DNA from: Thainema sp.
GTDB taxonomy: Bacteria > Cyanobacteriota > Cyanobacteriia > Phormidesmidales > Phormidesmidaceae
DNA: 64,000 bases
Assembly (NCBI GenBank): GCA_052168235.1
Contig: JBQLZK010000015.1
Location: 53,475-117,474 of the forward strand
Direction: 5' to 3'
How positions within the stretch are numbered: the stretch's first letter is position 1; each line of letters opens with the position of its first letter. The position numbers were made by a program, and so were the translations under genes. The notes below the pieces were generated by a model that was given only the letters and a program-made list of their open reading frames with translations, was not told the origin of the DNA and made no database searches. Shown here in pieces: positions 2,986 through 58,109 of this stretch.

Positions 2986-2986
2986 T

Positions 2987-8661: not shown

Positions 8662-8709
8662 CTTATTCGTGTTAGTTTAATAAATTGCCATAAAGAGGAC
8701 ACGAATGAA
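8662..8709. repeat. 48-bp palindromic site, copy A (degenerate)
   Basis: CTTATTCGTGTTAGTTTAA-taaattgcca-TAAAGAGGACACGAATGAA, with the same arm spacing as the sites at 11436 and 58062. Confidence 0.7.
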
Positions 8710-9118
8710 TGCGCAACAGTTGGGCATCCCCCCTCTTAGAATGGCCCACCTCTGCGATCGCATTACATGCTCAAGGTGAGATGAGCCATCTGCCTCCCTT
8801 AGGAATCGTAAACTTTGGTATCCGCCCTGCGGAATCCCCAACATCAACGGGGTAGTCTATTAGCAAGGAGCTAAAAAACTCCTCGTTCAAGGAACAATTC
8901 AATTGCTCAGTAAAAGGAGGTCAGTATCGATTTCCGATTGAATCTGTTTCACATCCAACTAACGGCATCCAACTCGGTTGTTGATATTTCCTAAACTTAA
9001 CGATAGAGAGTTTTGCTGCGCATTTGCAGCACTCTAGCTAGTCTCAACTCATGTAGGAAATCACTCAGCGTTGCCAGTCTGGATGCCGTTATTGTCATTT
9101 TTTTAGCATCAAAAATTA

Positions 9119-11338
9119 TCACAACTGATACTCGGAAATGTTGGCGTTGATGCGCCAGTCTAGCAGCGTATATCGCTGGCGATCGCGCACCTGTCCGACT
9201 GCGATCGCAACCGCTTTCTTGGGGCCAACAATAATCGCTAACTGCTTGGCGCGGGTGAGTCCGGTATAGAGCAGATTACGGGTCAGCATCAGGTAGTGCT
9301 GCGTAAACAGCGGCAGAATCACCACCGGATATTCACTGCCTTGCGACTTATGAATCGTGACCGCCCAGGCTAGGGTCAGTTCATTCAAATCGGCTGCGTC
9401 ATAGGTGACCCACCGCTGGTCGTACTGCACCGTCACTGCCTGCTCCTCGGCATCAATCTCGGCGACGGTACCTAAGTCGCCATTGAAGACATCTCGCTCA
9501 TAGTCATTCAACTGCTGCAACACCCGATCGCCCACCCGCAGGATTTGACTGCCGCGATTCAGCTCTGCGGCTTGGGGATGGGCCGGATTCAACCAGGTTT
9601 GCAGCACCTGATTAAGATTACGAGTGCCCATCGTTCCCCGGCGGGAGGGACAGAGGACTTGCACATCGCGGACGGGATTGAAGCCTAAGGTTGGAATCAG
9701 TTCCTGGATTAGGTCTTTCATGCCTTGAATACCTGGTTCCGGTTCCGGTGCTCCGAGCCAGAGGCAGTCGCTACGCGGTCGGGGAGAGACTGATTCCAGC
9801 TGAGGAAAGTCGCCGTGGTTAATTCGGTGGGCATTGACGACAATCTGACTGGCCTGAGCTTGCCGAAACACCTGCGTCAGTCGCACCACGGGAATGCAGC
9901 CGGAGTCGATCAGGTCGCGCAGCACGTTACCGGGGCCAACGCTGGGCAACTGGTCAATATCGCCCACCAGCAGTAAGTGCGCCTGGGTCGGAATCGCTTT
10001 GAGCAGGGCATTGGCCAAAAACAGATCCAGCATGGAGGCTTCATCAATCACGACGGCATCGGTATCTAAGGGGTTGGCTTCATGTCGCTGGAAGCTCAGG
10101 TGGCTGGGATCAAATTCCAAGAGGCGGTGAATGGTTTTAGCCTCTTTGCCCGTCATCTCACTCAGGCGCTGGGCCGCTCGACCGGTGGGAGCCGCCAGCA
10201 GTAGGCGTTTTCCCATCGCGTGCCAGAGGGCAACGATGGTGCGGGTGGTAAAGGTCTTACCGCAGCCGGGGCCGCCAGTCAGAATCAGCACCCGTTGGCT
10301 AGCGGCCATTTCCACGGCTTGCTGTTGTTCGAGGGAGAGCGGCAGACCCGTGGTGTCAATCACACGCTGAATCCAGCGCTGGACACGGGCTACATCGACT
10401 GCTACAGGGTGCGAGAGGAGCAGTTGCACCTGCTGGGCTAGGTGTTGCTCGGCGGCGTAGAAGGCGGGTTTGTAGCAGCAGGCTTGCTCATCGTGATGAT
10501 GCAGGATCAGCTCTTGTTCGCTGGCCATCTGCTCAATCAGCGGGTCTAGGACTTCGGGATGGGGCTGATGATCCTCAATCGTGAGCCGCTTCATCGCTGT
10601 CTGCACCAGTTCTGTTCTGGGCAGATAGCAGTGGCCTTGATCAGCGGCTTCACTCAGGACATGAACCAGTCCGGCCCGGTAGCGGAATTCGGAGTTGGGG
10701 GCAATGCCCAGGTTACGGGCAATCGCATCGGCGGTGACAAAGCCAATGCCGTAGACATCGGTGGCGAGACGATAGGGGTTATGGGTAACAACGGCGATGG
10801 CATCGTTGCCGTAGGTTTTATAGATTTTGACGGCATAGGTGGTGGAGACACCATGACCTTGCAGGAACAGCATCACCTCTTTAATCGCCTGCTGTTCGAT
10901 CCAAGCAGCTTGAATTAGCTCAATCCGTTTGCGCGCGATACCGGGCACTTCAATCAGTCGCTCGATATCCTGTTCAATCACATCCAGCGTTTCTAGGCCA
11001 AAGTGATTGACGATGCGACGAGCGGTGACGGGGCCAACGCCTTTGATTAAGCCGCTGCCGAGGTACTTTTCAATACCGGTCAGAGTGGCGGGTTTGGTTT
11101 CCTGGTAGTGCTTGACTTGAAATTGGCTGCCGTATTTGGGATGTTCTCGCCAGAAGCCGAACAGCTTGAGGGTTTGGCCGGGTTCGATATGGGCAAAGGT
11201 GCCGACAATGGTAATCAGCTCCGGTTCGCTGGTGACGTTGAGGCGAGCGACGGTATAGCCGGTATCATCGGCATGGAAGGTGAGGCGTTCGACAACGCCA
11301 TGCAGATGAATTAGGGCGGGCAGATCGGCAGCAGTCAT
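9119..11338 (-). CDS. recD2: ATP-dependent RecD-like DNA helicase (RecD2)
   Basis: YLGSGLIKGVGP HhH region, Walker A TGGPGCGKT, DEASM, VGDIDQLPSVGPG, TIHKSQGSE and LLYTGLTRAK motifs. Confidence 0.95.
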   Translation of the reverse strand: MTAADLPALIHLHGVVERLTFHADDTGYTVARLNVTSEPELITIVGTFAHIEPGQTLKLFGFWREHPKYGSQFQVKHYQETKPATLTGIEKYLGSGLIKGVGPVTARRIVNHFGLETLDVIEQDIERLIEVPGIARKRIELIQAAWIEQQAIKEVMLFLQGHGVSTTYAVKIYKTYGNDAIAVVTHNPYRLATDVYGIGFVTADAIARNLGIAPNSEFRYRAGLVHVLSEAADQGHCYLPRTELVQTAMKRLTIEDHQPHPEVLDPLIEQMASEQELILHHHDEQACCYKPAFYAAEQHLAQQVQLLLSHPVAVDVARVQRWIQRVIDTTGLPLSLEQQQAVEMAASQRVLILTGGPGCGKTFTTRTIVALWHAMGKRLLLAAPTGRAAQRLSEMTGKEAKTIHRLLEFDPSHLSFQRHEANPLDTDAVVIDEASMLDLFLANALLKAIPTQAHLLLVGDIDQLPSVGPGNVLRDLIDSGCIPVVRLTQVFRQAQASQIVVNAHRINHGDFPQLESVSPRPRSDCLWLGAPEPEPGIQGMKDLIQELIPTLGFNPVRDVQVLCPSRRGTMGTRNLNQVLQTWLNPAHPQAAELNRGSQILRVGDRVLQQLNDYERDVFNGDLGTVAEIDAEEQAVTVQYDQRWVTYDAADLNELTLAWAVTIHKSQGSEYPVVILPLFTQHYLMLTRNLLYTGLTRAKQLAIIVGPKKAVAIAVGQVRDRQRYTLLDWRINANISEYQL

Positions 11339-11435
11339 TAGGGCAGCAATCAGGCAAGAAATGGGGCTGGCTTAATCATAGCGAGGATGAATAAGGACAT
11401 TATCAAAGTGCGATCGCACTTTCAATGTCACAAAC

Positions 11436-11483
11436 TTTATTCGTGTTATTTTGGTTTCATGCAATTTAAGTAACACGAATAAA
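11436..11483. repeat. 48-bp palindromic site, copy B
   Basis: TTTATTCGTGTTATTTTGG-tttcatgcaa-TTTAAGTAACACGAATAAA, preceded by TCACAAAC as in copy C. Confidence 0.85.
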
Positions 11484-11523
11484 TTGTCAGGCGGGCAGTC
11501 ATGTGTAGAGATTGGTTGGAAGG

Positions 11524-11600
11524 TGAGATCGCAACTAAAAAGCCCAATCACGAAGACTAGGCTGAGGTGAGCTTGGTCATGGGGTGGAGTTGCGATCTCA
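11524..11600. repeat. About 77-bp hairpin element with 13-bp terminal inverted repeats; homolog at 58149-58234
   Basis: TGAGATCGCAACT ... AGTTGCGATCTCA. The core ATCACGAAGACTA..GAGGTGA.CTTGGTCATGGG is shared with 58171-58233. Confidence 0.75.
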
Positions 11601-11763
11601 ATTCACAAAGGCAGTGCCAAACTGTTCTACAAGAAAATGGCGCAAGCGCTGATATCCCAACCGAGAATGGCGAAGGGAAACCGCTCAACGTAGACGATCA
11701 GAAAGATGAGCTGCCTCTGGGAGTCCCCCAGCAGAGCTGGGGGTTTACCCGATTAAATTATCT

Positions 11764-13191
11764 TTAATTCCCTTCTGTATTCAGATTAACCATGCTCTGC
11801 TGTACAGCAGCAAGAATTTGCTGTAAATCCGCTTCAGTATGGACAGTCGAGAGAAACCCGCCACCACCCCGCAGTAAGATGCCTTGATGGAGCAAGTGAT
11901 AATAAATCAAATCCGGCTGAGGGACGGTGAGCGAGCCGCTGAAAATCCGAGGTGCTTCTGTCGCAACTGGGCCAAATAGAGAACCAAAATGAGCCATTCG
12001 TATCGGGATATTCTCGGCTGCAAAATAGGTATTCAGTTGCTTAACAAATTGAGCTGTTTTTTGATTCAGGCGTTCTTGTAGCGCTGGACCTTCATCAATG
12101 AGCCGCTGTAGCACAGCATGAGCGGCAGCCATTGCGAGGGGGTGTTTGCAGAAGGTACCTGCAAAAAAGGTAGGCTGGACAGTAGGAGCAGAGGCATCAC
12201 CATAGTTCCACCTGCCACCATCAATCTGATCGAGATATCGGGCTTGACCTGCGATCGCACCAATGGGCAATCCACCACCGATAATTTTTCCGTACGTGGC
12301 TAAATCTGCTTGTACGTCAAACCAGGCTTGTGCACCACCGGGATGAATCCGAAATCCGGTGATCATCTCATCAAAAATTAGGACAATGTCAGCATCACGA
12401 GTGATTTGGCGCAAATCGCGCAGAAAATCGGTGGGCTGGAGGTTAGGCCGAAATGTTTGCACGGGCACGACCAGAACTGCTGCCAGTTCTGAAGCCTGAG
12501 CCTGAATCTGTTCTAGAGCTTGAGGACTGCCGTAGTCCAAAACTAGTACATCTTGCACCATGTTGGTCGGAGTACCAGGTGAGATCGCAACGGTCTGAGG
12601 TTGACCATCAACAGTTTGCTGTTGCGCAAGGGTGCCGTCAAAGTGACCATGATACGAACCCGAAAAGAGGGCAATTTTCGAGCGACCTGTGGCAGCCCGA
12701 GCTAAACGAATCGCGGTCATGACAGCTTCAGTTCCGGTATTGCTGAAGGCGACGCGCTCCATACCAGTCAATTGAGTGATGGCAGTGGCAACGGCTCCAG
12801 CCAGCTCAGTTTGCGGCCCAAGCTGAATACCGCGATCCAGCTGTTCCATCAGAGCAGCTTTAATAAAGGGTGGATTGTGACCAAATAAGTTAACTCCCAT
12901 ACCCATCGTCACATCGATATATTCGTTTCCGTCAATGTCCCAAATCCGCGAACCTTGAGATCGCCCAGCCACAATGGGATAGGCCATTTCTTTAGTGAGC
13001 AAGTTAAAGCCCGATACTGCTCGCTGATCGGCCAGAACGGGACGATAGGTTTCTGCCCAAGCTTTGGAGCGGCGAGTTCGCTGGGTGTAGTCGGCGATCA
13101 GCGCCTCAAGGTGTTGGCGCTGTTGCGGAGACAGTGCTTCAGCCGCTGAGGAGGGGATGAGCTGGGGAGAAGAAAGAGGTGTTGTAGACAT
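11764..13191 (-). CDS. Class III PLP-dependent aminotransferase (PKS/NRPS AMT-domain-like, stand-alone)
   Basis: RIWDIDGNEYID..GVNLFGH, FSNTGTEA, GSYHG, FDEMITGFR and TYGKIIGGG motifs. The KEMAYPIV N-terminus resembles McyE/MycA-type AMT domains. Start placed at MSTTP. Confidence 0.88.
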   Translation of the reverse strand: MSTTPLSSPQLIPSSAAEALSPQQRQHLEALIADYTQRTRRSKAWAETYRPVLADQRAVSGFNLLTKEMAYPIVAGRSQGSRIWDIDGNEYIDVTMGMGVNLFGHNPPFIKAALMEQLDRGIQLGPQTELAGAVATAITQLTGMERVAFSNTGTEAVMTAIRLARAATGRSKIALFSGSYHGHFDGTLAQQQTVDGQPQTVAISPGTPTNMVQDVLVLDYGSPQALEQIQAQASELAAVLVVPVQTFRPNLQPTDFLRDLRQITRDADIVLIFDEMITGFRIHPGGAQAWFDVQADLATYGKIIGGGLPIGAIAGQARYLDQIDGGRWNYGDASAPTVQPTFFAGTFCKHPLAMAAAHAVLQRLIDEGPALQERLNQKTAQFVKQLNTYFAAENIPIRMAHFGSLFGPVATEAPRIFSGSLTVPQPDLIYYHLLHQGILLRGGGGFLSTVHTEADLQQILAAVQQSMVNLNTEGN

Positions 13192-13259
13192 AGAATTTGT
13201 TGGATAAAGGGCGAGTTGTAGGAGAGACGAATAGCGACTCGTCCTCACATGAAAATTTC

Positions 13260-16200
13260 CTAGACTGTTTGAGGCAAGTTAAAGAAGCCGCTGCGACTGA
13301 AATAGGTAAGATAGCGCTGCAACAGTGGCGGATCGATTGCCGGACAAGTGATTGCGCTGTCCATTAGTTCTGTGCAGGTCTTCTGACAGTCGAACTGCCG
13401 ATCGTCAGCATCGAGCGACTGGGCAACCGTGGCTGCTGTTGCTGAGTTCATGGCATTATCTACGGAAGTATCTGCAAACAGAATCATCAATGGATAGAGA
13501 GGATGATCCTGCACTCGATCATCGAGCGTTTTCAGGTGTGATTGCCACTGCTCGGTCAGGGTATGTTGCCACTGCTCATATGAAACAAGTCGTAGGGGAT
13601 AGCTAAGTGCCTGAATCTGCTGCACTAAGCTGCACCAAGAGATCGAGCGGGGGTTGCACAGATGGAATGCCTGCCCCCAAGTGGTTGAACGTTGAGAAAG
13701 ATGCACAATCGCCTGACTGATGTAGTCCACTGGCGTCATATCGACTTGGGTTTCAACTGCCGGAGCACAGCCCAAGTAGAGACAACCCCGCAACATCAGC
13801 GATAAGCGATCGCGCGTATTGCAAATGCCCGTCTGCTGATGACCCAGAATGCGTCCGGGTCGATAAACAGCGACGGGAACACCGCGATCGCAAGCCGTCC
13901 AAAGTAAGTTTTCCGCAACCCATTTACTGCGGGCATAGCCGCCAAGCGGGGGTGGCACTTGGGAAAGATTAGTCTCTTCGGTAATTGCACCTGCCGCAGA
14001 ATCCAATCCCGAAAAGACGCTGAGGGTGGAAACATAGGCAATTGGTTTGAGTTTGACTTGAGTTGCCAACCTGAGCAATGCTTGCGTTCCGAGTACATTG
14101 GCGGCTCGCACAGCGGTGTAGGGATAAGCTAAATTGACCGATGCTCCATTGTGATAAATGCGATCAACTTGATAGGCTAACGCTTGAAATTCTGCCTCGG
14201 TCAAACCTAAGTTAGGCTGCGATAAATCTCCCACCACAGGCGTGATCCGGTCGGCATAATCGTCTCGCCATAGCTGGTAGTGATGAAGATGCTGCCGAAG
14301 CCGCTGTTGAGCGCTGTCGTAATCTGCTGCTCGGATTAGACAGTGAATGTGAGCTGATGTTTGCTGAAGTAGCTCGTGCAGCAGAAACGCTCCCAGGAAT
14401 CCGGTAGCGCCTGTCAGCAGCACATGTTCAGGTTGGGCTGACGGTTCAATTAAATCGGGGGTTGGTTGAATCGTGGTATCTAACTGGAGGTCTTGATGCA
14501 GCAGATCATCACGCTGTTTGAAATCGCACTGTAATGTTCTACTTTGGCACTGATTAATCCGCGCTCTCAGTGCTGCAATAAAGGCTTGCGCCAGAGTGGC
14601 AATAGTTTGTTCGTGATGTTGATGGCGGCTGTACGTCCATTCAACATAGAGCTTGCCGTCAGCAACCAGTCCCACCACTTCAATGAGGTGTGTTCGATGA
14701 TTATGGGAACTGCGCGTCCGCCCTTGCGATTCTTCAGCGGGTTTGAACAGCTTGGACTGGGTAAAGACCTGATCAAACTGTCCCAAATAGTTGAACTTTA
14801 TCTGAGGTTGCGGCAGTTGCATAATCGGTTGCTCAGCAGCCAAATAGCGTAGGGCACCATAGCCAATGCCGCGATTGGGGATGTGCTGGAACTGCGTTTT
14901 GATGGTCTCTAAAGCTGCTTGCCAAGTAGCGATTTGCAGCGGTAAACAGACTGGATAAACCGACGTAAACCAGCCCAACGTGCGAGACAGATCGACCGAT
15001 GAGAACAATGGTTCTCGCCCGTGGCCTTCCAAGTCTACCAATACTGTAGGCTGATTGATCCAGGGCTGAAACGCTTGTGCTAGAGCCGTTAGCAGCACTT
15101 CATTAATATGAGCCTGATCGGCTTGAGGAACAGTCTGGAGTAGAACTTGAGTTTCCGCCGCTGTGAGTTCAACGGTAAACGTCTGAGTCGATGCGATCGC
15201 AGTTTGTTCCTCGGTCACATCCACTGGAATTGCCGTTACTCCAGCCTGTAAATTGGATTGCCAAATTGCTAATTCCTGCTGGAGTTCGGACGACTGAGCA
15301 TACTGCTGAAGCTGGTTTGCCCACTCTTGAAACGAAGTAGTTTTGGCAGGAAGCTGAGCGACTTGCCCCTGACTCAGCTGCCTATAAACCGTCTGAAAGT
15401 CCTCCAGCAGAATCCGCCACGACACCCCATCAATCACTAGATGGTGAACGATAATCAGCAACCGCTGCGGTTGATCTGCACCGAGATTAAACAGCGCGAC
15501 TCTCACTAAATCGCCAGAATCAAGATTGAGATTACCTTGTAAGCGATTGGCATGAGATTCAATGACAGCCGCCTGTTCAGCACCGGGGCAATCAGCCAAG
15601 TCAATGACTTCTAGAACTGGATGAACCCTTGAAGTGGGCAAAATTTCCTGCTGCCATCCGGATTCGGTGTGGACAAAGCGCGATCGCAAATTATCATGAT
15701 GCTCGATTAAATGCTCAATTGTCTGCTCTAAGAGTCCTGAGTCTAATGTTTGACGGCACTCTAGCAGCACGGCCTGATTCCAGTGATGCGGCTGAGCAAA
15801 CTCCTGCTCAAAGAACCAACGTTGAATTGGTGTCAGCGGCACGATTCCAGTTACGTCTCCCTGTTCCGCTTGTGCTTGGCTCTCAGTCCCCGCTACAGAT
15901 GCTAATCCTGCAATAGTCTGATGTTCGAACAGTTGCTTCGGCGTGAGACTCAGCCCAGCTTGATTGGCTTTGGCAATCACTTGAATGCTGAGAATTGAGT
16001 CACCACCGAGACTGAAGAAGTTGTCATGAATGCCAACCTGCTCCAGTCCTAATACGTCTGCCCAGATTTGCGCTAGTACTTGCTCAGCTTGAGTTGTAGG
16101 TGGAGCGTAGGATGACTGAGACTGCAAAGTTTCTGGCACTGGTAGCACTTGCCGATCTACTTTGCCATTGGGTGTGAGCGGTAGTGCATCAAGAACTGCG

Positions 16201-19022: not shown

Positions 19023-19062
19023 GACGGTTTTCGTGTCTACGTTTGTTTGTAGGATTTCAGTC

Positions 19063-20100
19063 CTATGAAAGGGGTGAAACGGGTTCTGCCATGCCGACCA
19101 GTACTGTGCGATTACCCTGAAAAGGGTCACGTCCGTGGGCTGCCAGCATGTTGTCCAGCAGCAGAATGTCCCCGGCTTGCCAGGGAAAACGAATGGTCTC
19201 GGCGGCGTAGGCTTGCCGAATGGCATCCAGAACGGTCGGTTCAATCTCCGAGCCGTCGCCATAGTAGGCATTGCGGGGTAAGACATCCCCCGACCGCAAA
19301 ACCGCTTGAACAGAGGGTTTCAGGCTAGAAATATGGAATAAATGAGCCTGATTAAACCAGACCGCTTCTCCCGTTTCAGGATGGGTTGCGATCGCTTGGC
19401 AGACTTGGCGAGTGGTCAAGCGATCATCCTGCCACTCCCATTCAATTTGAGCCTCCCGACAGTAGGCTTCGACTTGTACCTTATCCTGCGTCTGAAAGAC
19501 CTGCTGCCAGGATAGATCCAGCCCATCACCGTAGTTGCGGACGTACATGATCTGCCGTTCTTGTAAGCGATCGCGCAGCACAGGATTGAGTCGCTGGAAT
19601 ACACGGCGACTATCGGCAATCGGCGTAATTCCACCGGATGCGGCAGGCTGCACGCAGAAAAACGCAATTTTCATCGGCCAGTTGCGGCTATAGGCCATTT
19701 CATTGTGCAGGGGAATGGATTGATCGGCAGGATATTCTGTTGACGTGTAGATCTGGCCTTGCACCTGAGTTCGGGGAGTTGAGCCGTAGGAGTAGGTCAG
19801 CAATGGTCCCCCGATCGTTTGTATAAACTGCTCAAATTCTGTGGCTCCTTTAACCTGAAAGTTGCGAAACAGAAGGCCACCCACCTGTCGGAGATGCTGG
19901 GAAATTAAATCCCGGTGGTTCCCTGCCCAAGTGACAAAGTTGAGTTCTGCGATCGCAGGTTGGATAACCAGCGGCAAAGGCTGATTCGGAGCAAGAGAAT
20001 CGATTCGCACTAAATCGCTTTGGGTTAGGCTCATTGCCTTACGGCGCACAGCACCTAGCCGAGGTCTTGTAGGCGGAGTAGAGAAATCAGAGCGGGTCAT
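19063..20100 (-). CDS. Stand-alone TauD/TfdA Fe(II)/2-oxoglutarate dioxygenase (putative aspartyl beta-hydroxylase)
   Basis: IPLHNEMAY (HxE), WFNQAHLFH and LLDNMLAAHGR motifs. Immediately precedes an I-A(Asp) module. Start placed at MTRSD. Confidence 0.88.
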   Translation of the reverse strand: MTRSDFSTPPTRPRLGAVRRKAMSLTQSDLVRIDSLAPNQPLPLVIQPAIAELNFVTWAGNHRDLISQHLRQVGGLLFRNFQVKGATEFEQFIQTIGGPLLTYSYGSTPRTQVQGQIYTSTEYPADQSIPLHNEMAYSRNWPMKIAFFCVQPAASGGITPIADSRRVFQRLNPVLRDRLQERQIMYVRNYGDGLDLSWQQVFQTQDKVQVEAYCREAQIEWEWQDDRLTTRQVCQAIATHPETGEAVWFNQAHLFHISSLKPSVQAVLRSGDVLPRNAYYGDGSEIEPTVLDAIRQAYAAETIRFPWQAGDILLLDNMLAAHGRDPFQGNRTVLVGMAEPVSPLS

Positions 20101-20123
20101 AGGTCTAAATCGCGAATGGTATG

Positions 20124-24861: not shown

Positions 24862-24862
24862 T

Positions 24863-46327: not shown

Positions 46328-46374
46328 AGTTATTTTTTGGAAGCCGCGCTCCGCGCGGCTTCCAAAAAATAACT
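46328..46374. repeat. Perfect hairpin (22-bp arms) with GCCGCGC-TCC-GCGCGGC core
   Basis: AGTTATTTTTTGGAAGCCGCGC TCC GCGCGGCTTCCAAAAAATAACT. The same core occurs at 52453-52491. Confidence 0.85.
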
Positions 46375-46456
46375 TGTACCTCAGTAGCTCAGGAAAGGCT
46401 ATATCACGTTTCAACCTGTTTAATGACCTGATTTAGTGTGTGACGATGTGAGGATA

Positions 46457-49087: not shown

Positions 49088-49125
49088 TTATCAGATGCCG
49101 TTCTCGGTCAGGTATCCGGAGATCT

Positions 49126-49266
49126 AGGGTTGTTTCATGTTGATCAGAGGGGATCTAAAACCCTTGACGTTACGTAGGGGCAAATGGCCATTTGCCCCTA
49201 CCAGATACGTAAAACGGGGACTTTGAAGCTTTCAGAAGCTTCATTTGACGATAAGAAAACCACCCT
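49126..49266. mobile_element. Possible MITE containing a GTAG-type REP palindrome
   Basis: Imperfect terminal IRs AGGGTTGTTTC / GAAAACCACCCT. Internal perfect 28-bp palindrome GTAGGGGCAAATGGCCATTTGCCCCTAC at 49174-49201. Confidence 0.45.
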
Positions 49267-49312
49267 GCTCAGTAACCCCATGCTTGTAGTTACCGCTAAG
49301 GATATATGCTCT

Positions 49313-50284
49313 ATGCTGCGATCGCACTGGTGGCAACGGCTCTGTTTATTGGGAATTACCCTGTGGCTTACGGTTGCCTGTGGCTCAGTGTCTCAGCCGT
49401 CGGGTCTAGGCAATTCCCAATCCTCACCTGCAAATTGCCGCCCAGTCAACCATGCGATGGGTGAAACCTGCGTTCCGGCGGAACCCCAGCGGGTGATCAC
49501 CCTCGATCCAGGCTCTCTAGGAAATACACTGGCTCTAGGTATCCAGCCCATCGGCGCGGCGACCCTAGATGCCCAGTTGCCTGACTATCTCCAGGAGCGA
49601 GTCAGTGATCTGGAACTGCTGGGGCATCCCAATCAGCCAAGCTTAGAGAAAATTACGCTGCTCAAGCCGGATTTGATTTTGACCGATACCCGCACGGATC
49701 TATACCAGCGGCTATCTGAGATCGCGCCGACAGTTGCCTCAGAAGACTGGATAGAGCCGGAGTCAGAACCCTTATGGAAGCGGGATTTGAAGCTGCATAT
49801 TCAGGCCGTGGGTCAAATAGAGCAAGGTGAGCAATTACTGAGTGACTATGACCGCCGAATTCAGGATTTCCAGCAGCAAATGGGTGATCGCTTGTCAAAT
49901 ACGCAAATATCCGTGGTCAACTTCCGCCCCGACCACGTTCGTATTTATCTCAAGGATTCCTTTGTCGGTACGATCCTCAAAGATGCGGGTCTACCGCGCC
50001 CTCCAGCCCAGGATCAAGCAGGTTTTATTGAACGGATTTCCCTGGAAGCTATTCCCCAACTGGATGCGGACGTGATGTTTCTGATTGTCTCTGATCCCGA
50101 GCAGACTAGTACCCTCGATCAGTTCACGCAAAGCCCGCTTTGGTCACAGCTCAATGTGGTGCAGCAGAATCGTGTTTACCCCGTATCCAGCGACGTTTGG
50201 ATTAACGGGTGGCATATGCTTGGCGCGCAGCAGGTACTTGACGATCTGTTTCAATATCTGATCTCAGAGACAGCGGGAGCTTAG
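49313..50284 (+). CDS. Iron-siderophore ABC transporter substrate-binding lipoprotein (FhuD/FecB-like)
   Basis: Lipobox LTVAC, HAMGETCVP..PQRVITL, PSLEKITLLKPDLIL and PLWSQLNVVQQNRVY. Start placed at MLRSH. Confidence 0.9.
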   Translation: MLRSHWWQRLCLLGITLWLTVACGSVSQPSGLGNSQSSPANCRPVNHAMGETCVPAEPQRVITLDPGSLGNTLALGIQPIGAATLDAQLPDYLQERVSDLELLGHPNQPSLEKITLLKPDLILTDTRTDLYQRLSEIAPTVASEDWIEPESEPLWKRDLKLHIQAVGQIEQGEQLLSDYDRRIQDFQQQMGDRLSNTQISVVNFRPDHVRIYLKDSFVGTILKDAGLPRPPAQDQAGFIERISLEAIPQLDADVMFLIVSDPEQTSTLDQFTQSPLWSQLNVVQQNRVYPVSSDVWINGWHMLGAQQVLDDLFQYLISETAGA

Positions 50285-50286
50285 CC

Positions 50287-51633
50287 ATGTCGTTTTTCTC
50301 CAATCTGCGCGCCGTTCGCCCTTTCCTCATGGTTTGGAGCGGTCAGACGGTGTCGCTCTTGGGTAGCCGCATGACCAGTTTTGCCACGCTGCTCTGGGCA
50401 TGGCAGATCACGGAACAGGCAACCGCATTGTCATTCCTCTGGTTTTTTATGCTGCTACCCCAGGTGCTGATCTCACCATTTGCTGGCGCGATTGTGGATC
50501 GCTGGAATCGCAAAACGCTGATGATGGTAGGCGATGCGATCGCAGCTTTATCGACGGTCGTGCTATTAGCCCTGCACCTGACGGGGCAGCTTCAGATTTG
50601 GCATTTTTACTTAACGGGCGCAGTGAATGCCACCTTTGCCCAAATTCAAGAGCTGGCCTATTCCGCATCGGTGGCGCTGATGGTGCCCAAGACCCAGTAC
50701 AGCCGCGCCAGTAGCCTAGAGTTTTTGGCCAGCTACGGATCGCGCATTTTAGCTCCTGCCGCAGCCGGAGTGCTATATCCCTTGGTGGGTTTGACGGGCA
50801 TCTTTCTGGTTGACCTCGCTACATTTGCGATCGCAGTAAGCACTATCCTATTCTCATCCATTCCCCAACCCGCGCGTTCCTCAGCGGAGGCTAACGCTGA
50901 TGCGGCTCTCGGCATCTGGCACAACATGCAGTTCGGCTTTCGCTACATTTTCGCCACCCCCGGTCTGTGGGGCTTTTTGCTGCTGGCGATGCTGTTTCAG
51001 TTGATTCACGATCTTGGTGATGCCGTCTATGCCCCGATGATCCTAGCTCGCAGCAGTAACGATGCCGCTGTTTTTGGGATCGTCGGAGCCGCTGCTGGCC
51101 TCGGCGGTGTCACTGGCGCTGTGATGATGACGGCTTGGGGTGGATTCAAAACCCGCATTCATGGCGTACTGCTCGGCATGATCGGCGCAGGACTCAGCAA
51201 AACGCTTCTTGCTTTGGGGCAAAGTCCCCTCGTCTGGTTACCCACCCAGTTCTGCTCCTCCTTCCATTTCCCGATATTAGGCAGTTCAGAACAAGCTATC
51301 TGGCTCTCCAAAGTGCCGCCCGATATCCAAGGTCGCGTCTTTGCCGCTCGCTGGATGCTGGTTCAGCTTGCTTCACCGCTGAGCTTCTTAATCGGCGGGC
51401 CTTTGGCCGACTGGATATTTGAACCCGCCATGCAGCCCGGCGGAACGCTAACCCCCTATTTAGGCAACATTTTCGGCACTGGTACTGGGGCAGGCATGGC
51501 AGTTTTGTATGCCTTAACCTCTGTTGCCCTCATTGGCCTTGGCCTAAGTGGATACGCGATTTCCACCCTGCGCCACATTGAACAAGTCGTGCCCGATCAC
51601 GATGCGATCGCACCCGCCCACCTCAAACCCTAA
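50287..51633 (+). CDS. MFS transporter (probable siderophore exporter)
   Basis: Multiple TM helices, WSGQTVSLLGS, GAIVDRWNRK motif A and QGRVFA. Confidence 0.88.
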   Translation: MSFFSNLRAVRPFLMVWSGQTVSLLGSRMTSFATLLWAWQITEQATALSFLWFFMLLPQVLISPFAGAIVDRWNRKTLMMVGDAIAALSTVVLLALHLTGQLQIWHFYLTGAVNATFAQIQELAYSASVALMVPKTQYSRASSLEFLASYGSRILAPAAAGVLYPLVGLTGIFLVDLATFAIAVSTILFSSIPQPARSSAEANADAALGIWHNMQFGFRYIFATPGLWGFLLLAMLFQLIHDLGDAVYAPMILARSSNDAAVFGIVGAAAGLGGVTGAVMMTAWGGFKTRIHGVLLGMIGAGLSKTLLALGQSPLVWLPTQFCSSFHFPILGSSEQAIWLSKVPPDIQGRVFAARWMLVQLASPLSFLIGGPLADWIFEPAMQPGGTLTPYLGNIFGTGTGAGMAVLYALTSVALIGLGLSGYAISTLRHIEQVVPDHDAIAPAHLKP

Positions 51634-51658
51634 ACTCAACACTCAACACTCAAAACCC

Positions 51659-52432
51659 ATGACTTCCACCTCCACCCCAACCCCTCGCTACTCCGACTAT
51701 GACATCTACGCTCGCATCTACAACGACGAGATCGGCAACCGCCTCAGTCGGTTAGCCTTGCCGCCCCTGGAACAATTACTCTTTCCAGTCGCTCCCCCTC
51801 CCGCTACTCTGCTCGACCTCTGCTGCGGAACGGGACACTTAGCCGCCGATCTAACCCGTCGCGGCTATACCGTGCAGGGGCTAGACGGTTCTGAGCAAAT
51901 GCTGCACTACGCGCGGCTAAATGCACCAGCAGCAACGTTTATATTGGCAGATGCCCGTTCGTTTTCCTTATCCCAACCGGTTCAGGCCGTCATCTCTACA
52001 TCCGATTCACTCAATCATATTTTGCAGCTTGATGAGCTGAGCCAGGTTTTCCAAAACGTGTATGCGGCCCTCTCCTCCCAGGGTTACTTCCTGTTCGATT
52101 TCAATCTAGAGAGCCGCTACCAAGCCGACACTTGGAACGGTTCTCTAGCAGGTGGAATTGCCGATGACTACGCCTGGGCTGCTCAGCGCGTATACGATAA
52201 CAACCTGGGGCAGGTACACCTAACCATTTTTCAGCGGGTTGAAAATGACCTCTGGCAGCGTTCCGATAGCTGCTTGACGGGCAGAAGTTACGACCTTTCA
52301 GACGTGCAGTTGGCCTTAACTCAAGCTGGCTTCACGGATATTCAAATCTATGACGCCCAAAACGACTTTAATATTCACGACTGGGGGCCAGGTAAGGTTT
52401 ACGTTTGGTGCCGTAAACAGGCCGAAGATTGA
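51659..52432 (+). CDS. Class I SAM-dependent methyltransferase
   Basis: LLDLCCGTG, GLDGSEQML, ADARSF and DSLNH motifs. Start placed at MTSTS, after a CTCAACA repeat. Confidence 0.88.
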   Translation: MTSTSTPTPRYSDYDIYARIYNDEIGNRLSRLALPPLEQLLFPVAPPPATLLDLCCGTGHLAADLTRRGYTVQGLDGSEQMLHYARLNAPAATFILADARSFSLSQPVQAVISTSDSLNHILQLDELSQVFQNVYAALSSQGYFLFDFNLESRYQADTWNGSLAGGIADDYAWAAQRVYDNNLGQVHLTIFQRVENDLWQRSDSCLTGRSYDLSDVQLALTQAGFTDIQIYDAQNDFNIHDWGPGKVYVWCRKQAED

Positions 52433-52452
52433 TTACTGTAAATCAAGTTTTG

Positions 52453-52491
52453 ATAGTTGAGGTGCCGCGCTCCGCGCGGCACCTCAACTAT
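52453..52491. terminator. Perfect hairpin (18-bp arms) between convergent genes; GCCGCGC-TCC-GCGCGGC core
   Basis: ATAGTTGAGGTGCCGCGC TCC GCGCGGCACCTCAACTAT. Confidence 0.7.
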
Positions 52492-52512
52492 TTATAGAAA
52501 ACCCAATTGATA

Positions 52513-53490
52513 TTACTCACCCCTAAGACCTTCACAGCCCTCTACCGCCCTAATATTCTTAACCAACGATGGAGCAAGTTCGGACGGTTGCTTGCTGTAA
52601 CAAGACACCTTGAGCTGCAATGTGCGATCGCAATCTTCTAATACGTCTCCCTGAAAGCGCTTCACCGTGCCATCAGCCGTTTGAAATTGCAGCTCAAAGC
52701 GATGAAATGTGCCAGCCTCATTGGCTTCAATCAGGTGGCACTCTACAGGATAATCTAACCAATCCCAACCATATTGCAGCATCAGCTCCCGCTCAAAAGG
52801 CTGTGCGTCGTAAGGCAACAGACCCCAGCCGCGATAGATTTCAGACATGACTTGAATCGATCCGGTGCGTGCCAGGAGAGCCGCGAATGAATCCGCCGTG
52901 AGCCGTCCATAATAGCGCCCTGACGGCAAATCAATCAGCGTTGGAGCAAAGCGATGGCAACCAATATGGCTCACCTGCCAAACCCTGACCTGCGGTAAAT
53001 TCAGTGCTTCAATAGCTTTGACTGCCTGATGAAAGAACGGCTTGCCATAGCGAGCACAGCAACGGTCGTGACTGCCGTGGGTACAGATCAAAATATCGCG
53101 CATTGGAGCCGGACAATTGCTTGCCTGGGGACGCGCCAACTGTCCTTTAAGCAGCGGGGCCACAGCCTCCAGGTTAGGAACCTGAAACTCTTGAGCATGG
53201 TAGCCAGTGGCTAAGCCGCTGGGCTGTCGGAAAATCATCACCCGCGTTTGATCGTCTTGCTGCAACTGGGGATTGTGAATCAGCAAAGGCCGCACAGCGC
53301 CGTGAGTCTGCTGATAGTCCTGCAAAACCACTTTCAGCTCAGCAGGCAAACCCTGAGAATCTAACGCATTAGCCGCCCACGGCGGCGGACATTCAATCAG
53401 CACGTACAGCGGCGTAGTCACCGCATAGCCAATCAGCTCCTCCCCCAGTTGAGCCGAGACATTAGCACAAAACGCTGGTTTTGCAGTCAT
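52513..53490 (-). CDS. Sucrase/ferredoxin-like (thioredoxin-fold [2Fe-2S]) protein
   Basis: YVLIECPPPW, ICTHGSHDRCC and SHIGCHRFAPT..GRYYG motifs. Confidence 0.85.
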   Translation of the reverse strand: MTAKPAFCANVSAQLGEELIGYAVTTPLYVLIECPPPWAANALDSQGLPAELKVVLQDYQQTHGAVRPLLIHNPQLQQDDQTRVMIFRQPSGLATGYHAQEFQVPNLEAVAPLLKGQLARPQASNCPAPMRDILICTHGSHDRCCARYGKPFFHQAVKAIEALNLPQVRVWQVSHIGCHRFAPTLIDLPSGRYYGRLTADSFAALLARTGSIQVMSEIYRGWGLLPYDAQPFERELMLQYGWDWLDYPVECHLIEANEAGTFHRFELQFQTADGTVKRFQGDVLEDCDRTLQLKVSCYSKQPSELAPSLVKNIRAVEGCEGLRGE

Positions 53491-53533
53491 TCCTCCTCAC
53501 TTCTCACTCCTCACTCCTCACTCCTCACTTCGC

Positions 53534-55690
53534 TCAAGGATTCACTGTTTCTTGAAAGACCAAATGAGCTTCAATTTCTGAGCGCGATCGCAAAACTGGA
53601 CGCATGGCTTGCTGGCTAAACTGCTGCAAAGCTTGATCCATAATCCCTGGAACGGCATGGGTTTGTGTGGCATTACTATAACTCATAGAGGCCATTGCCC
53701 GCACGGGATTCGAGAATTCAATTGCAGCCACATAGGAATCCCCACCATAGGCCACAAACTGGTTATCGTCAGTCGGCATAAACCAAACAGAGCGAAAGAC
53801 CCCTAGCGGTTCGTCGGCTCCATTGGCAGGCAGATCAACCTGTTCAGCTTGCAGCCGAAACACCTCACCCCAAGCTATATCCAGGCTGCCATAGGTGGTC
53901 TGGATATCTGCTGCCACTTCTTCTAAGACCGCAACAGCTTGAGCGGGATCAGCCAAGCCATCCGGCGTACTCAAGGGCTGATCAGCATCCCAGGGCTGAG
54001 CAAACAAATCGGCAACGCCCATCGCTTCTGCCCACCGCACAAATAGAACGGCTCCCTGGCTCTCTGCATCAGTTCGCCGATCCCACTGACTCAGTACCGA
54101 TACGGCCTGCTGTGCTAGCTCATTGCCCTGCTGCTGCGCCACAGGCAGTAAGTCATCCAGCAGCCGATCAGCCAGCATGATTCGAGTTGAATGCTTGTAT
54201 TCAATTAGCTCTGAAAATGCGATCGCATCATCCTGAAGCAGCATCTCTGCCGAGCGCTGTGCCCGCAGTGACATTGGTTCAGAGGGAGCCATATAGGCCG
54301 GATAATCATCAGCTGAAATCGCGAGTGGAAATGTTGTCGTCCAAGGCGGATCATTGGCATTTTGCAGCCATCCACTGACCGGATCGACGATGCGCGGTAA
54401 ATCCTCATAGGAATGCATCTCTGTCCACAACGTTGCGGCTGTATCACCAGGCTGCACCTCAGACCAGTCTTCAAAATCTCCCTGCGATCGCACCGGCACC
54501 TGTCCATTAAACAGATGCATAATATGCCCCTCGCGGTCGGCATACATCACCGTAAACATGGGCAGTTGCATTGGCTCTAGAGCCGCTTCAAACTCCCGTA
54601 AATTCGTAGCCCGTGCCATATTCCACCACTCTTCCATCGCGCCCGCTCGATCCAAACCGACGACTCGCAGAGCAATTGCTGTGTCTTCTGTCTCGCGCAC
54701 AACCGGGCCATGCACAGAGCGCTTAATGACCAGTGGTTCCTCCCGCCATGTCCCATCGGGCTGCTTGATCTTCAAGACTTGCTGCGTCACCTCAAAATCG
54801 CGGTGTTCTCCTTCCCAGCGATAGCCGTCGTCCACAAGCTCTAGACGATAAGCATCCCAGCCATCATGGGTATTGACTGTATGCGTCCAGCCCAAATGGT
54901 TATTAAACGCGATGCCTAATACGGGCATACCGACTAGAGTGGCACCGTAGGCATCGATTCCCGGTGCCGATAAATGCGCTTCATACCAGCGAAACAAGTC
55001 TGACCAAAATAAATGGGGATTGGCCAGCAGCATTGCGTGACCACTCTCGCTGCGAGCTGGCGCAATTGCCCAGGCATTTGAACCCGGTTGGTGCAACGGT
55101 TCCCAAGATCGAGCCGTGTCTTCACTGGTTGCCAGATCCAAATCGGCAATTTCGTCTGGATTCACCACAAATATGAAGTGCAGCACCCGCTGACCGTGAG
55201 CCAAAATATCTGTCGCGGTAACAGGTAAGACGACAGAAAAGGCCGGATCAATGCGATCGCGATGTGCCTCAGCATAGGCGTTAATCCCGGCGGCAAACGC
55301 ATCTAAGTAGCCCCGAAAGGCTGGACTTTGAGTAGTGTACCAGTCTGCTGCTCGCTCCGGAATGCCCATTGTTCGCACCCATTGATCCGAGTCCCGATAG
55401 TCTTCCCCCCAATACTCTGCTGCTCGTCCTCGCGCCTGACCGTAAAGCCGCAGCAGTAAATCAGCATGGCTCTGCATCTGTGCCCAACCAAAGGCGTAAA
55501 ACAATCCCTGAGCATCCCGGCTATAAAGATGCGGTACGCCGTAGGTATCCCAGAGAACTTCGGATGAGCTTTGGGCAATGCCAGGGGTATAGAATCCAGC
55601 GGTTGCAGTGATGATCAAACCCAGTAGCAGAGCAATTCCTCGACGCATCCAGCGGTAGCGATTGAATAATCGGGATCTGATTTTTGACAA
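53534..55690 (-). CDS. Penicillin acylase family Ntn-hydrolase (PvdQ-like acylase)
   Basis: Signal peptide, WDTYGVPH, GSNAWAIAP (nucleophile Ser), LLANPHL, GWTHTVN and QNANDPPW. Confidence 0.92.
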   Translation of the reverse strand: MSKIRSRLFNRYRWMRRGIALLLGLIITATAGFYTPGIAQSSSEVLWDTYGVPHLYSRDAQGLFYAFGWAQMQSHADLLLRLYGQARGRAAEYWGEDYRDSDQWVRTMGIPERAADWYTTQSPAFRGYLDAFAAGINAYAEAHRDRIDPAFSVVLPVTATDILAHGQRVLHFIFVVNPDEIADLDLATSEDTARSWEPLHQPGSNAWAIAPARSESGHAMLLANPHLFWSDLFRWYEAHLSAPGIDAYGATLVGMPVLGIAFNNHLGWTHTVNTHDGWDAYRLELVDDGYRWEGEHRDFEVTQQVLKIKQPDGTWREEPLVIKRSVHGPVVRETEDTAIALRVVGLDRAGAMEEWWNMARATNLREFEAALEPMQLPMFTVMYADREGHIMHLFNGQVPVRSQGDFEDWSEVQPGDTAATLWTEMHSYEDLPRIVDPVSGWLQNANDPPWTTTFPLAISADDYPAYMAPSEPMSLRAQRSAEMLLQDDAIAFSELIEYKHSTRIMLADRLLDDLLPVAQQQGNELAQQAVSVLSQWDRRTDAESQGAVLFVRWAEAMGVADLFAQPWDADQPLSTPDGLADPAQAVAVLEEVAADIQTTYGSLDIAWGEVFRLQAEQVDLPANGADEPLGVFRSVWFMPTDDNQFVAYGGDSYVAAIEFSNPVRAMASMSYSNATQTHAVPGIMDQALQQFSQQAMRPVLRSRSEIEAHLVFQETVNP

Positions 55691-55841: not shown

Positions 55842-55987
55842 ATATTGAGCCTGATCGAGTCACTCATGTCAAGCAGCTTTAAACACAGCTTTAAACAATC
55901 GTTTGCCGTAAATTGATCTAAAGATCCCATGGCTGCACTAGCAACTCAGATAAACAGAATATTAGTTGAGAGCTATTTTCATCAAGG

Positions 55988-56179: not shown

Positions 56180-56233
56180 TAGCGGGGCTATGGTTGCAAT
56201 GCTTTTGATTCTGACTCTGACAGGAGCGATCGG

Positions 56234-57378
56234 ATGAACGCCCCAAAAACCTACACGATTGAAGAATTCCTAGGCACAACCAACTATCTGGGTGCCTCAT
56301 TCTCTCCGGATCAGCGCAACCTGTTGGTCAGTAGCGATCGCTCCGGAATCTACAATGCCTATCGTCTCCGCATCCGTGACGGCAGCACGATTCAGCTAAC
56401 CCACTCATCCACCGATTCAATTTTTGCGATCGCATATTTCCCCACGAATGAACGCTTCATATACCAGAGCGATTGCGGTGGCAACGAACTGAGTCATATT
56501 TATGTGCAAGCGCCCGATGGTACCGTAACTGATCTGATTCCCGGTGAGAACTTGAAGGCGGTGTTCCTGGGGTGGGCTAAAGACGATCAGTCGTTTTTTA
56601 TTGGGACAAATGAGCGAGATCCGCGCTTTTTTGATGTCTACGAGTACCAGGCTGCGTCCTATCAACGGCAGCTCATTTATGAAAACAATCAGGGGTTGGA
56701 CTTTGAAGACATCACCCCAGATCGTCGCATCATTGCCTTCGCAAAACATGACACCAATGCGAATAGCGATATTTATTTGTACGATTGCCACACTGGCCAG
56801 CTCAACAATATTACGGCTCACGGTGGCGATATTCATCATCGGCCCGCCGGATTCAGTCCCGCTGGTCAGTTTTTGTATTACCTCACCGATCGCGACAGAG
56901 AGTTTTTGTATCTGATGCGCTACAACCTGGCCAGCGGTAGTCATCAACAGCTCTTATCGGCAGACTGGGATATTTACAACGTGTCTCTATCCAAGCACGG
57001 CAAATATTTGGTGCTGAGTATCAACAATGATGCCCGGACTGAACTCCGAATATATGATGCGGTCAGCCTTTCACCTGTTGAGCTACCTCAGTTGCCTAAT
57101 GCTGAAATCAGCTCGGTTGCGATCGCACAAACTGAAGATCGGATGGCATTTTATGCCAGTAGCAGCAATATGCCTCACGATCTCTTTGTCTACGACTTTA
57201 ATGGTGACACACCAATCCGGCTAACTCATTCGCTCAATCCCAATATCAATCCTGATGATTTAGTGGACGGCAAAGTGGTTCGTTTTGCCTCCTATGATGA
57301 CTTGGAGATTCCTGGCATTCTCTATCTGCCGCATCAGGCCAATGAAGCGGCTCAAGTTCCGGCTTTAGTCTGGGTACT
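56234..57378 (+). pseudogene. S9 family peptidase, truncated before the catalytic domain
   Basis: TolB-like beta-propeller repeats, then RFASYDDLEIPGILY..VPALVWV, where HGGP is expected. The sequence then switches to IS DNA. Confidence 0.85.
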
Positions 57379-58052
57379 GCGACTTGGTCAAAGAGCGCTC
57401 GTTCGGAAGCATGACCATCTTCACAGGAGAAAATGTTGACCGCAAGATGAAGCATCGGGTCAAGCACGACCAAGGACTTACCTGGCATGGCCGCTTCCGA
57501 CAACGGTTGAAGCACCCCTAGGCGATGGTCGGTCGCTGAGAGGCAGTTGCCATCTAACACGCGCAGACGGTAGCGACCGTTCCAAGTCGTCGATAGACCG
57601 ATCAACTCGTTAATCAGGTTAGCCAGTTCAGTTGCCGTTTCTCGCAATAGGGCAGCCGTCACTTGCGGTTCAATGCCATTGAGCTTTGAGTAGAAGGCAC
57701 TGGCGCTCACTAGCACGATAGATGACTGAGCTCGATAGGCAGCATAAACCGATGGATAGATGCTACAGACGACGAGACTCATCAGCTCAACTACGCTGGA
57801 GAAGAGCAGTTCACGCTCATATTGCAGCTGGGCATAGTCATGGAACAGTCTATCGAGGCGATGGGGTATAAAGATGCGTTCCATCAGTCCCCTCAGCATG
57901 ACACTCACCGGGCTCTGTTTGACGAAATGCTCAAAAAGGGTGGGTAACATTGGACGACCCACAACGGAAGTAACGTCGTTACTTTGGTCTTGGCCCAGTG
58001 TCGTCCTTCTGGCATTATTCTTTTACCCGTTTTTAACACCTTGAAAGGGCTA
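57378..58052 (-). mobile_element. IS4-family element remnant (one end plus N-terminal part of the transposase)
   Basis: QYERELLFSSVVELMSLVV, RLRVLDGNCL..HRL, PGKSLVV and CEDGHASER resemble IS4 transposases. The C-terminal DDE part is missing. A candidate end TAGCCCTTTCAAGGTG lies at about 58052. Confidence 0.8.
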
Positions 58053-58061
58053 ATCACAAAC

Positions 58062-58109
58062 TTTATTCGTGTTACTTTAACCAATCAACATTAAAGTAAC
58101 ACGAATAAA
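58062..58109. repeat. 48-bp palindromic site, copy C (perfect 19-bp arms)
   Basis: TTTATTCGTGTTACTTTAA-ccaatcaaca-TTAAAGTAACACGAATAAA. Confidence 0.9.

Follow-up and report, generated by a model that had tools for sequence, protein, structure and literature searches.

The subject of this analysis is a family of palindromic DNA sites, three copies of which, here named A, B and C, lie in a 64,000-nucleotide (nt) stretch of a Thainema sp. genome, referred to as the window (G000:C15:53475-117474, G000 being the genome under study, C15 one of its contigs and G001 a sister genome of the same genus). The three palindromes are best explained, with a probability of roughly one half, as dyad-symmetric protein-binding sites whose cognate is a small basic protein encoded behind one copy of the family, acting on genes of the plasmid backbone including the RecD2-type helicase gene recD2. 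The best reading of the sites and the small protein is that of a repeated plasmid operator, or a centromere-like site, with a small cognate protein.

Palindrome A is located at 8662..8709, B at 11436..11483 and C at 58062..58109. The coordinates given in a previous reading of the sequence alone (the sequence-only reading), together with the distance of 26 bp between TTCGTGT and ACACGAA in all three sites, were confirmed; the pattern TTCGTGT-N26-ACACGAA has three matches in the window, while 0/100 dinucleotide-preserving shuffles contained any match. The 12-mer TTATTCGTGTTA has five occurrences in the window, all exact, namely two each in B and C, where either arm contains it, and one in a single arm of A. 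The three centres (TAAATTGCCA in A, TTTCATGCAA in B and CCAATCAACA in C) all differ and none is self-complementary; the arms of C are perfect over 19 bp, those of B are imperfect past 13 bp, and A has a consensus left arm and a degenerate right arm (TTCATTCGTGTCC on the opposite strand). The 10-bp centres, different in each site, and the perfect match of the C arms over 19 bp therefore agree with the first description, and the intergenic position of all three sites also holds. In particular, A is found about 410 nt past the recD2 stop codon and about 706 nt ahead of the start of a YhcG-type nuclease gene, B is 280 nt past the stop codon of an aminotransferase gene and 97 nt upstream of the recD2 ATG, and C precedes a 238-amino-acid (aa) open reading frame (ORF) on the minus strand by 99 nt and a 222-aa ORF on the plus strand by 130 nt.

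The sites belong to a larger family, which became visible when the whole genome and its relatives were scanned, as the sequence-only reading had proposed. In the 7.54-Mb G000 assembly the core pattern occurs in 11 copies, four on contig C9, three on C15, two on C55 and one each on C64 and C66, with a spacing of N26 in 10 copies and N25 in one; these five contigs are plasmid-like. The half-site consensus is about TTYATTCGTGTYRCTTT, and a weight-matrix scan of G000 also detected lone strong half-sites at C2:248862 and C55:51457. From related filamentous cyanobacteria, G000 included, 49 family-like sites were compiled, with spacings of N25 (13 sites), N26 (30 sites) and N27 (6 sites); A+T makes up 70% of the centres, in comparison to a genome of 50% G+C, and the centre sequence is unconserved and different in all 49. 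A stricter form of the pattern matched 4/61 related genomes (reversed control, 0/61) and a looser one 19/173 genomes of the order, with the reversed-pattern control giving one match each in 7/173.

A scan of bacteria and archaea with one genome per species returned 41 loci, corresponding to 40 distinct sites, against an estimate of about 34 matches expected by chance in that public collection; sorting by eye assigned 16 of them to the family and 6 to another repeat, and 18 look like chance. The 16 family-like sites are all in cyanobacterial metagenome-assembled genomes (MAGs) labelled Phormidesmis, Elainellaceae or 'Cyanobacteria bacterium', so that, as judged from these sequence collections, the range of the family is narrow. 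The 6 sites of the other repeat, all in one 'Gemmata' MAG, were set aside because they belong to a different G+C-rich repeat sharing the core. An origin of the arms from an insertion sequence (IS) found no support, since no inverted half-site pair at IS-like spacing occurs anywhere in G000; in one MAG contig (L037, 3001-5210) two palindromes 2.2 kb apart surround an IS605-type TnpB gene, and no other site is so arranged. Searches of the literature on cyanobacterial protelomerases and linear plasmids, and on CyRepA and cyanobacterial plasmid replication origins, returned no account of the palindrome or of the protein family treated below.

The candidate cognate protein is encoded next to the sites themselves. 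In two MAG loci a site is found 13-23 nt after a gene encoding a protein of about 650 aa and just ahead of a 117-aa ORF, whose homolog in G000 directly follows the C64 site (G000:C64:3952-4314, outside the window). This small gene, encoding a protein of 115-122 aa, was detected in four genera, with 13 loci distributed over 12/173 genomes of the order, and in 12/13 loci a palindrome is located directly upstream of it, ending 0-7 nt ahead of the start codon; in the 11 loci that were measured, the gap between the end of the core and the small-gene ATG ranges from -1 to 7 nt. Gene and sites also occur together at the level of genomes: of the 12 genomes that carry the small gene, 11 have 2-15 sites, versus 8 of the 161 without it having any match, 6 of which were judged family-like by eye (Fisher p about 1e-11, uncorrected for relatedness).

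The small-protein family comprises 154 members in a collection of 5.8 billion proteins, all unnamed and cyanobacterial wherever a source is given. No Pfam or PDB relative was found, and profile searches gave only coiled-coil noise. The structural model is confident (predicted local distance difference test, pLDDT, 87.9) and shows a helical hairpin, formed by an N-terminal helix and a long C-terminal helix that flank a basic sheet of three strands; the G000 protein has an isoelectric point (pI) of 9.6 and its core one of 10.1. Gly, Arg, Lys, Tyr and Ser account for most of the invariant residues. A Foldseek search against the PDB gave nothing at E <=0.001, the top rows being release-factor GGQ domains at E 0.13, and the VIA structure matches, with Z of 8-9, cover the helical hairpin alone. 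In the ESM Atlas the protein leads to unnamed cyanobacterial clusters, one of which carries DUF6788 on 19% of its members. A homodimer prediction scored 0.31, the mark being 0.42, and the score of one control was 0.70.

The way in which the arms vary favours a protein-binding DNA site over a hairpin. Among the 49 sites, agreement between the two arms at the inner positions 1-9 equals the shuffled expectation (for example 31/49 against 30.8, and 32/49 against 32.4); such behaviour would be expected of half-sites that a dimer reads one by one, and not of a selected hairpin stem. As for the core ATTCGTGT, its sequence itself is fixed and not merely its pairing, bearing in mind that an exact TTCGTGT, the inner seven bases of the core, was the criterion of selection, while the flanking bases were unselected. 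In two genomes in which orthologous sites lie behind genes of 63% identity, the two sites retain their arms but share nothing in the centre. Conservation of the half-site sequence with dyad symmetry and independent variation is a feature of operators, as are the presence of a site at the gene of the candidate regulator and the co-occurrence, here imperfect, of protein and sites.

From these patterns we infer that the small protein binds the site and that such binding has an effect on the neighbouring genes. The likeliest binder would be this basic 115-122-aa protein with its helical hairpin and small basic beta-sheet, which would bind as a dimer to the two half-sites, whose TTCGTGT cores are 25-27 bp apart across the A+T-rich, unconserved centre, and would control its own gene through the copy upstream. 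It would also act at the copies scattered over the plasmid-like contigs, which adjoin backbone genes such as recD2, the prim-pol-like replication gene, the YhcG nuclease gene and the gene of a 723-aa helix-turn-helix protein. Across genomes the recurring neighbours of the sites are in fact the small gene, the prim-pol-like gene, recD2, YhcG-like nuclease genes and KatG; in G001:C101, G195:C13 and G196:C85 a YhcG-like gene and a palindrome are no more than about 2 kb apart.

In the window, B would act on the promoter region of recD2. This gene (9119..11338, minus strand, 739 aa, with the Pfam domains HHH_RecD2, OB_YrrC, SH3_13 and AAA_19) lies between A and B, and its paralog on C55, 98% identical (724/739 residues), has its own palindrome 109 nt upstream. 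Relatives of recD2 are common on cyanobacterial plasmids; the link with the site is lineage-specific, because no comparable palindrome was found upstream of two distant plasmid recD2 genes (Allocoleopsis pMIC7113.03 and Acaryochloris pREB1). A promoter-like match overlaps B on the minus strand, with a -35 element at 11490-11485 and a -10 element at 11468-11463.

B and C are each part of a longer direct repeat that includes the palindrome and about 120-170 nt on its right side. Alignment identified a shared stretch of about 80 nt next to B (11484..11563), common to C, C55:45004 and the G001 ortholog of B (B') and partly to C55:21949; since a copy of the B flank adjoins C in the same orientation (58110..58234, about 69-72% identity), B and C plus their flanks are direct repeats. 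Within the shared stretch the terminator scan detected a terminator-like hairpin (11563-11541, minus strand), present in the B and C55 copies. A conserved 7-codon mini-ORF, read by eye on the minus strand of window 11541-11605 as MTKLTSA at B and as MTKFTST in the copy beside C, has its end inside this hairpin, which precedes the palindrome in both cases; such a mini-ORF could be fortuitous or could serve as an attenuator-like leader. On the other side of C, 8 nt to the left, the motif AACACCTTGAAAGGGCTAA (58035..58053, plus strand) is the sole copy in the genome at <=2 mismatches; the same motif is found 9 nt left of a palindrome in G195:C504, and in G001:C87 (34-52) and at the end of G001:C36 at places where G000 has palindromes.

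Several observations weigh against the operator reading. The link between gene and site has exceptions: in G001:C87, whose contig extends only 74 nt upstream of the small gene, a different motif takes the place of the palindrome; in G008 the small gene is present and the site is degenerate; and G012 has one site and no copy of the small gene. In addition, a profile search with the small protein in five genomes with 1-4 family-like sites gave no match (0/5), so that the link is strong but incomplete; these five genomes are 92-99% complete by marker genes, and plasmid contigs may therefore be missing from them. The orthologous copies in G001, namely A in G001:C34 and B' with ACACGAAC in its right core, differ from those of G000 at 5/48 and 8/48 positions, respectively (read from alignments), and the flanks of these sites are 96% and 91.5% identical; A and B are thus no better conserved than their surroundings. 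The promoter scan at B gave one match versus 0.6 expected, which is within chance, and the scans at B, C and C55:45004 gave matches at or under the chance rate.

The placement of the sites relative to genes also tells against a plain promoter operator. Crude ORF calls on both sides could be made for 46 sites; the flanking ORFs are tandem at 28 of these, convergent at 11 and divergent at 7, and many sites are only 2-50 nt past a stop codon; operators are generally confined to promoter regions, whereas this distribution, with 11/46 convergent and 28/46 tandem, is near to random intergenic placement. A repressor operator had been named in the sequence-only reading as the alternative to a recombination system, and it fits better, owing to the site before the small gene in 12/13 loci and to the independent arms. 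Because about a quarter of the sites are between convergent ORFs, the role is probably broader than promoter repression and could include global plasmid control, pairing or partition, as for the KorB operators of IncP plasmids.

An unlikely alternative is that the palindromes are linked to replication, functioning as origins, in priming or in fork control on recognition by a prim-pol-type replication protein, with an accessory role for the small protein. In five genomes of one genus (g18) the gene order is prim-pol-like gene, palindrome, small gene, and a sixth such locus has a prim-pol-like gene reduced to its C-terminal part; in G012 and G195 the prim-pol-like genes are about 2 kb from sites. 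In several genera the gene of the prim-pol-like protein is near sites, which makes this protein another candidate for the binder and again tells against the small protein as cognate. The N-terminal domain of this protein of about 650 aa has as its best structural match 7nqd_A (Z 9.1, 154 residues, root-mean-square deviation 4.3), the next four matches also being archaeo-eukaryotic primase (AEP) polymerases, and a PHROG primase match was obtained at E 0.002; the invariant D-x-D and S..G.H are presumably the AEP motifs. The protein thus resembles AEP prim-pol enzymes as far as the model goes, but this model is of low confidence (pLDDT 57.6).

In G000 the support for a replication role is divided. 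Prim-pol homologs are encoded on the site-bearing contigs C9 (two copies) and C66, yet they are 7-23 kb from the nearest site, and no homolog was found on C15 and C55, which together carry five sites. The cumulative GC skew of the 117-kb contig C15 has its minimum at about 9537 in the window (C15:63011), inside recD2 and between A and B, and that of C64 lies about 400 nt from its site, but the minima of C9, C55 and C66 are not at sites. On both sides of the C15 minimum the genes are on the minus strand. Furthermore, eleven scattered sites are many for origins, and a single-strand priming site would need the selection for a hairpin that the arms do not show.

It is rather unlikely, at a level of probability slightly below that of a replication role, that the sites and the small protein form a novel plasmid system that goes beyond repression. 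At each of about a dozen places in a plasmid set, a coiled-coil dimer would here span two half-sites of 17 bp separated by three helical turns, organising, pairing or insulating modules or aiding the prim-pol or telomere-resolvase enzymes, and the bound sites would be preferred borders for the exchange of large cargo such as the siderophore cluster.

The palindromes could also act as stem-loops in RNA or single-stranded DNA, in the manner of repetitive extragenic palindromic (REP) sequences, serving in mRNA stabilisation, termination or processing and spreading passively or by a Y1 transposase; this is distinctly improbable. The position of many sites 2-50 nt past stop codons and of 11/46 between convergent ORFs would suit such a role, as would the predicted stems of -20 to -29 kcal/mol. 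In several sites, for instance B, C55:21949 and C9:107145, the transition mismatches are all G-U on one strand; several sites therefore fold better on one strand, because the mismatches are all transitions. The lack of covariation at the nine variable inner positions and the fixation of the core ATTCGTGT in its sequence nevertheless argue against a selected stem. The terminator scan flagged C, on the minus strand, but C was the only terminator-like site, its T-run tail (GTTTGTGATT) is poor, and the sites of B and C55:45004 were unflagged; intrinsic terminators have a G+C-rich stem followed by a T-run, and the stems of the palindromes are A+T-rich. Rfam 15 gave no match in the window at the gathering score, and 10 site loci searched at E <=1 gave one spurious microRNA model. 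In one metatranscriptome no RNA contig covered A or B, an absence that carries no weight in contig data. REP sequences and the related REP-associated tyrosine transposases (RAYT) are characterized by covarying stems, many copies and a Y1 transposase gene flanked by the repeats; in G000 the arms do not covary, there are 11 copies, and the two Y1_Tnp matches (C9:148984 and C2:257610) have no sites beside them.

Equally doubtful is the proposal that the sites are targets of a trans-acting site-specific recombinase and delimit mobile cassettes, namely recD2 and the siderophore region; the sequence-only reading had favoured a cassette system of this kind moving a siderophore region of 46.6 kb, and this view is not supported by the comparison with the sister genome. 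Window 1-11603 has a collinear counterpart in contig G001:C34 (96% and 91.5% identity), orthologs of A and B included; past B' the contig has about 500 nt of its own and then resumes at window 60359. As C34 jumps from 11603 to 60359, the G000-specific segment 11604-60358 (48.8 kb) is missing from the G001 locus. This segment begins about 120 nt right of B, the recD2 duplication on C15 and C55 (window 8788-11600) comes to within 79 nt of A on one side and extends about 117 nt past B on the other, and the homology between G000:C9 and G001:C50 begins 22 nt from the C9:114173 site. In the same direction point the direct repeats that B and C with their flanks form around the siderophore region, a metagenome contig that joins 8846 to 11515 on opposite strands, and the lone strong half-sites of C2 and C55.

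The breaks, however, are near the sites and never inside them: those at window 8788, 11600-11603, 55899 and 60359 and the one near the C9:114173 site are 20-300 bp or 2.2 kb away. The breaks at 11600 and 11603 fall inside a different, dispersed repeat (11564-11714), and nearness as such carries little weight, because surviving breakpoints on mosaic plasmids are mostly intergenic anyway. The contigs of three metagenomes and one metatranscriptome over window 7000-13500 showed no joint inside a palindrome; these being contigs, the absence has no weight. The siderophore cluster is found elsewhere in G001, where C19:65493 onward corresponds to window 11778 onward and C48:1-21871 to window 33836-55899, with C48 continuing beyond the cluster into DNA that in G000 is contig C17. 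A half-site scan of the flanks of the G001 cluster detected no palindrome in 15.5 kb on the left (L096) or 3.1 kb on the right (L097). The right end of the shared cluster, window 55899, is 2.2 kb short of C, which sits in a segment of 4.4 kb (55900-60358), mosaic in comparison to G001, that also holds an IS4-like fragment. The location of the sites at module borders therefore stands in part: they are at the borders between backbone and accessory genes, and the edge of the 48.8-kb segment is close to B, but the cargo is unbounded by sites in G001 and the right border fails, leaving only the left border close to a site; measured by the refuting condition set in the sequence-only reading, the cassette model fails at these two points.

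A recombinase that could use the sites did not emerge as their neighbour either. Domain searches in G000 detected tyrosine recombinases (PF00589) on C67, C39, C104 and C26 and at C15:4048 and a serine recombinase (PF00239) on C24; none of these genes, for which the sequence-only reading had suggested a search, adjoins one of the 11 sites, and the C15 match is a broken gene at a distance of 58 kb. Core sites of recombinases such as dif/pdif, lox and FRT have inverted arms around a crossover region of 6-8 bp. In the present family, arms of about 17-19 bp surround a centre of about 10-12 bp, with cores 25-27 bp apart, and the centres differ in all copies; crossover length, common crossover sequence, linked recombinase and joints within the site are thus all lacking. 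As far as the comparison of the two genomes goes, the siderophore cluster is placed differently in the sister genome, and the evidence does not identify the sites as its mover.

The possibility that the sites are ResT/TelK-like targets, or scars of hairpin-telomere fusion, on presently or formerly linear replicons draws on four observations. Protelomerases and hairpin telomeres are reported for cyanobacteria in a preprint, according to which the cyanobacterial enzyme needs two 28-bp halves (bioRxiv 10.1101/2024.11.13.623437), near the two halves of about 24 bp seen here. ResT/TelK-domain genes are present in 64/173 genomes of the order, many of these genomes having several and many copies lying 1-3 kb from a contig end, which fits linear replicons with hairpin ends as judged from the assemblies. 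In G150, 2 of the 10 sites examined adjoin ResT/TelK genes, 41-46 nt past the stop codon and about 645 nt before the start; moreover, contig G150:C8 (156,025 nt) has mirror-image ends, its sites at 3444 and 7714 having reverse-complement twins equidistant from the other end, an arrangement that, from sequence, points to long terminal inverted repeats or to assembly read-through of a hairpin end. This explanation is nonetheless highly improbable, given that the centres are not palindromic, a replicated telomere being a perfect palindrome, that the enzymes (64/173) are far more widespread than the sites (19/173), that G163, G172 and G181 have the small gene and sites and are not among the ResT/TelK matches, that the sole G000 copy (C58:15342-16382) is on a contig without a site, and that A, B and C show no mirror symmetry between their flanks.

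The remaining features of the window provide the setting of the sites. The presence of a TraG/TrwB-type coupling protein, ParA, ParB and recD2 makes the window look plasmid-like. Downstream of A in the direction of transcription, a gene encoding a YhcG/DUF1016 PD-(D/E)XK nuclease is found at 6873..7955 (minus strand). The siderophore-type region (11764..55690) includes genes for an aminotransferase, nonribosomal peptide synthetases (NRPSs), TauD, a TonB-dependent receptor, a periplasmic binding protein, a major facilitator superfamily transporter and a penicillin amidase. The 238-aa ORF beside C (57246..57962, minus strand) is weakly similar to the N-terminal half of IS4-family transposases; it has no Pfam match and matches NCBIfam NF033592 at E 1.3e-8 with 34 bits (cut-off 115) over profile positions 2-170 of 332, so that by sequence comparison it is probably a transposase remnant.

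The dispersed repeat at 11564..11714, of about 150 nt and separate from the palindromes, is covered very deeply by metagenome contigs, which show loose ends there, and G000 contigs C117, C143 and C144 carry partial copies of it; the two independent breaks at 11600/11603 within it adjoin a GCGATC-type HIP1-like sequence. Two other kinds of repeat occur inside the siderophore region. At 46299-46403 there is a palindromic repeat of about 105 nt resembling a miniature inverted-repeat transposable element, with 51-nt arms that are 78% complementary and with >25 copies in G001 at 84-98% identity. G-rich tandem repeats of 7-8 nt (GGATGGGT and GAGTG types) are located at 22227-22351, 26918-27026, 32616-32777 and 40783-40917, at the same place in successive NRPS modules.

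Control elements of the large cyanobacterial plasmids, which carry traits such as siderophore synthesis, are little known. The present analysis defines a cis element by its consensus, spacing and distribution among genomes, together with a candidate cognate family of 154 proteins and a set of backbone neighbours; it offers a testable handle on the regulation or maintenance of these plasmids and could yield a new operator/repressor pair for cyanobacterial genetics.

In comparison to known systems, the targets of protelomerases (telRL of N15 and the cyanobacterial TelT sites, the latter as described in bioRxiv 10.1101/2024.11.13.623437) are similar in being palindromes of 40-56 bp recognised by a dimer and sometimes located beside the gene of the enzyme; the sites described here differ in their non-palindromic centres, internal position and unmirrored flanks, and they appear not to track the ResT/TelK genes across genomes. 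The pdif sites of Acinetobacter plasmids and the dif sites of XerC/D share the inverted arms, the location at module borders and the differing centres, but have an 11-6-11 layout in place of the 17-19/10-12/17-19 found here, where no site-bounded module appears in a second context and no recombinase is linked. The CIRCE operator of HrcA is a 9-N9-9 inverted repeat that functions as a DNA operator and is also able to fold in mRNA; it resembles the present family in its conserved arms and in a spacer of near-fixed length and variable sequence, whereas its sequence and gene set are different, its arms are shorter, and the sites described here are often outside promoter regions. In the KorA/KorB system of the IncP-1 plasmid RK2, about a dozen palindromes are distributed over the plasmid, some of them far from promoters, and the cognate proteins are small, dimeric and autoregulated. 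The half-sites of the present family are far longer, about 17 bp, split by an unconserved centre of 10-12 bp and spread over five contigs, and the candidate protein, a putative binder, is no relative of ParB or KorA and has no Pfam, NCBIfam-type or PDB family; what the two systems have in common is the repetition of short palindromes beside backbone genes, which in RK2 are those of replication, partition and transfer.

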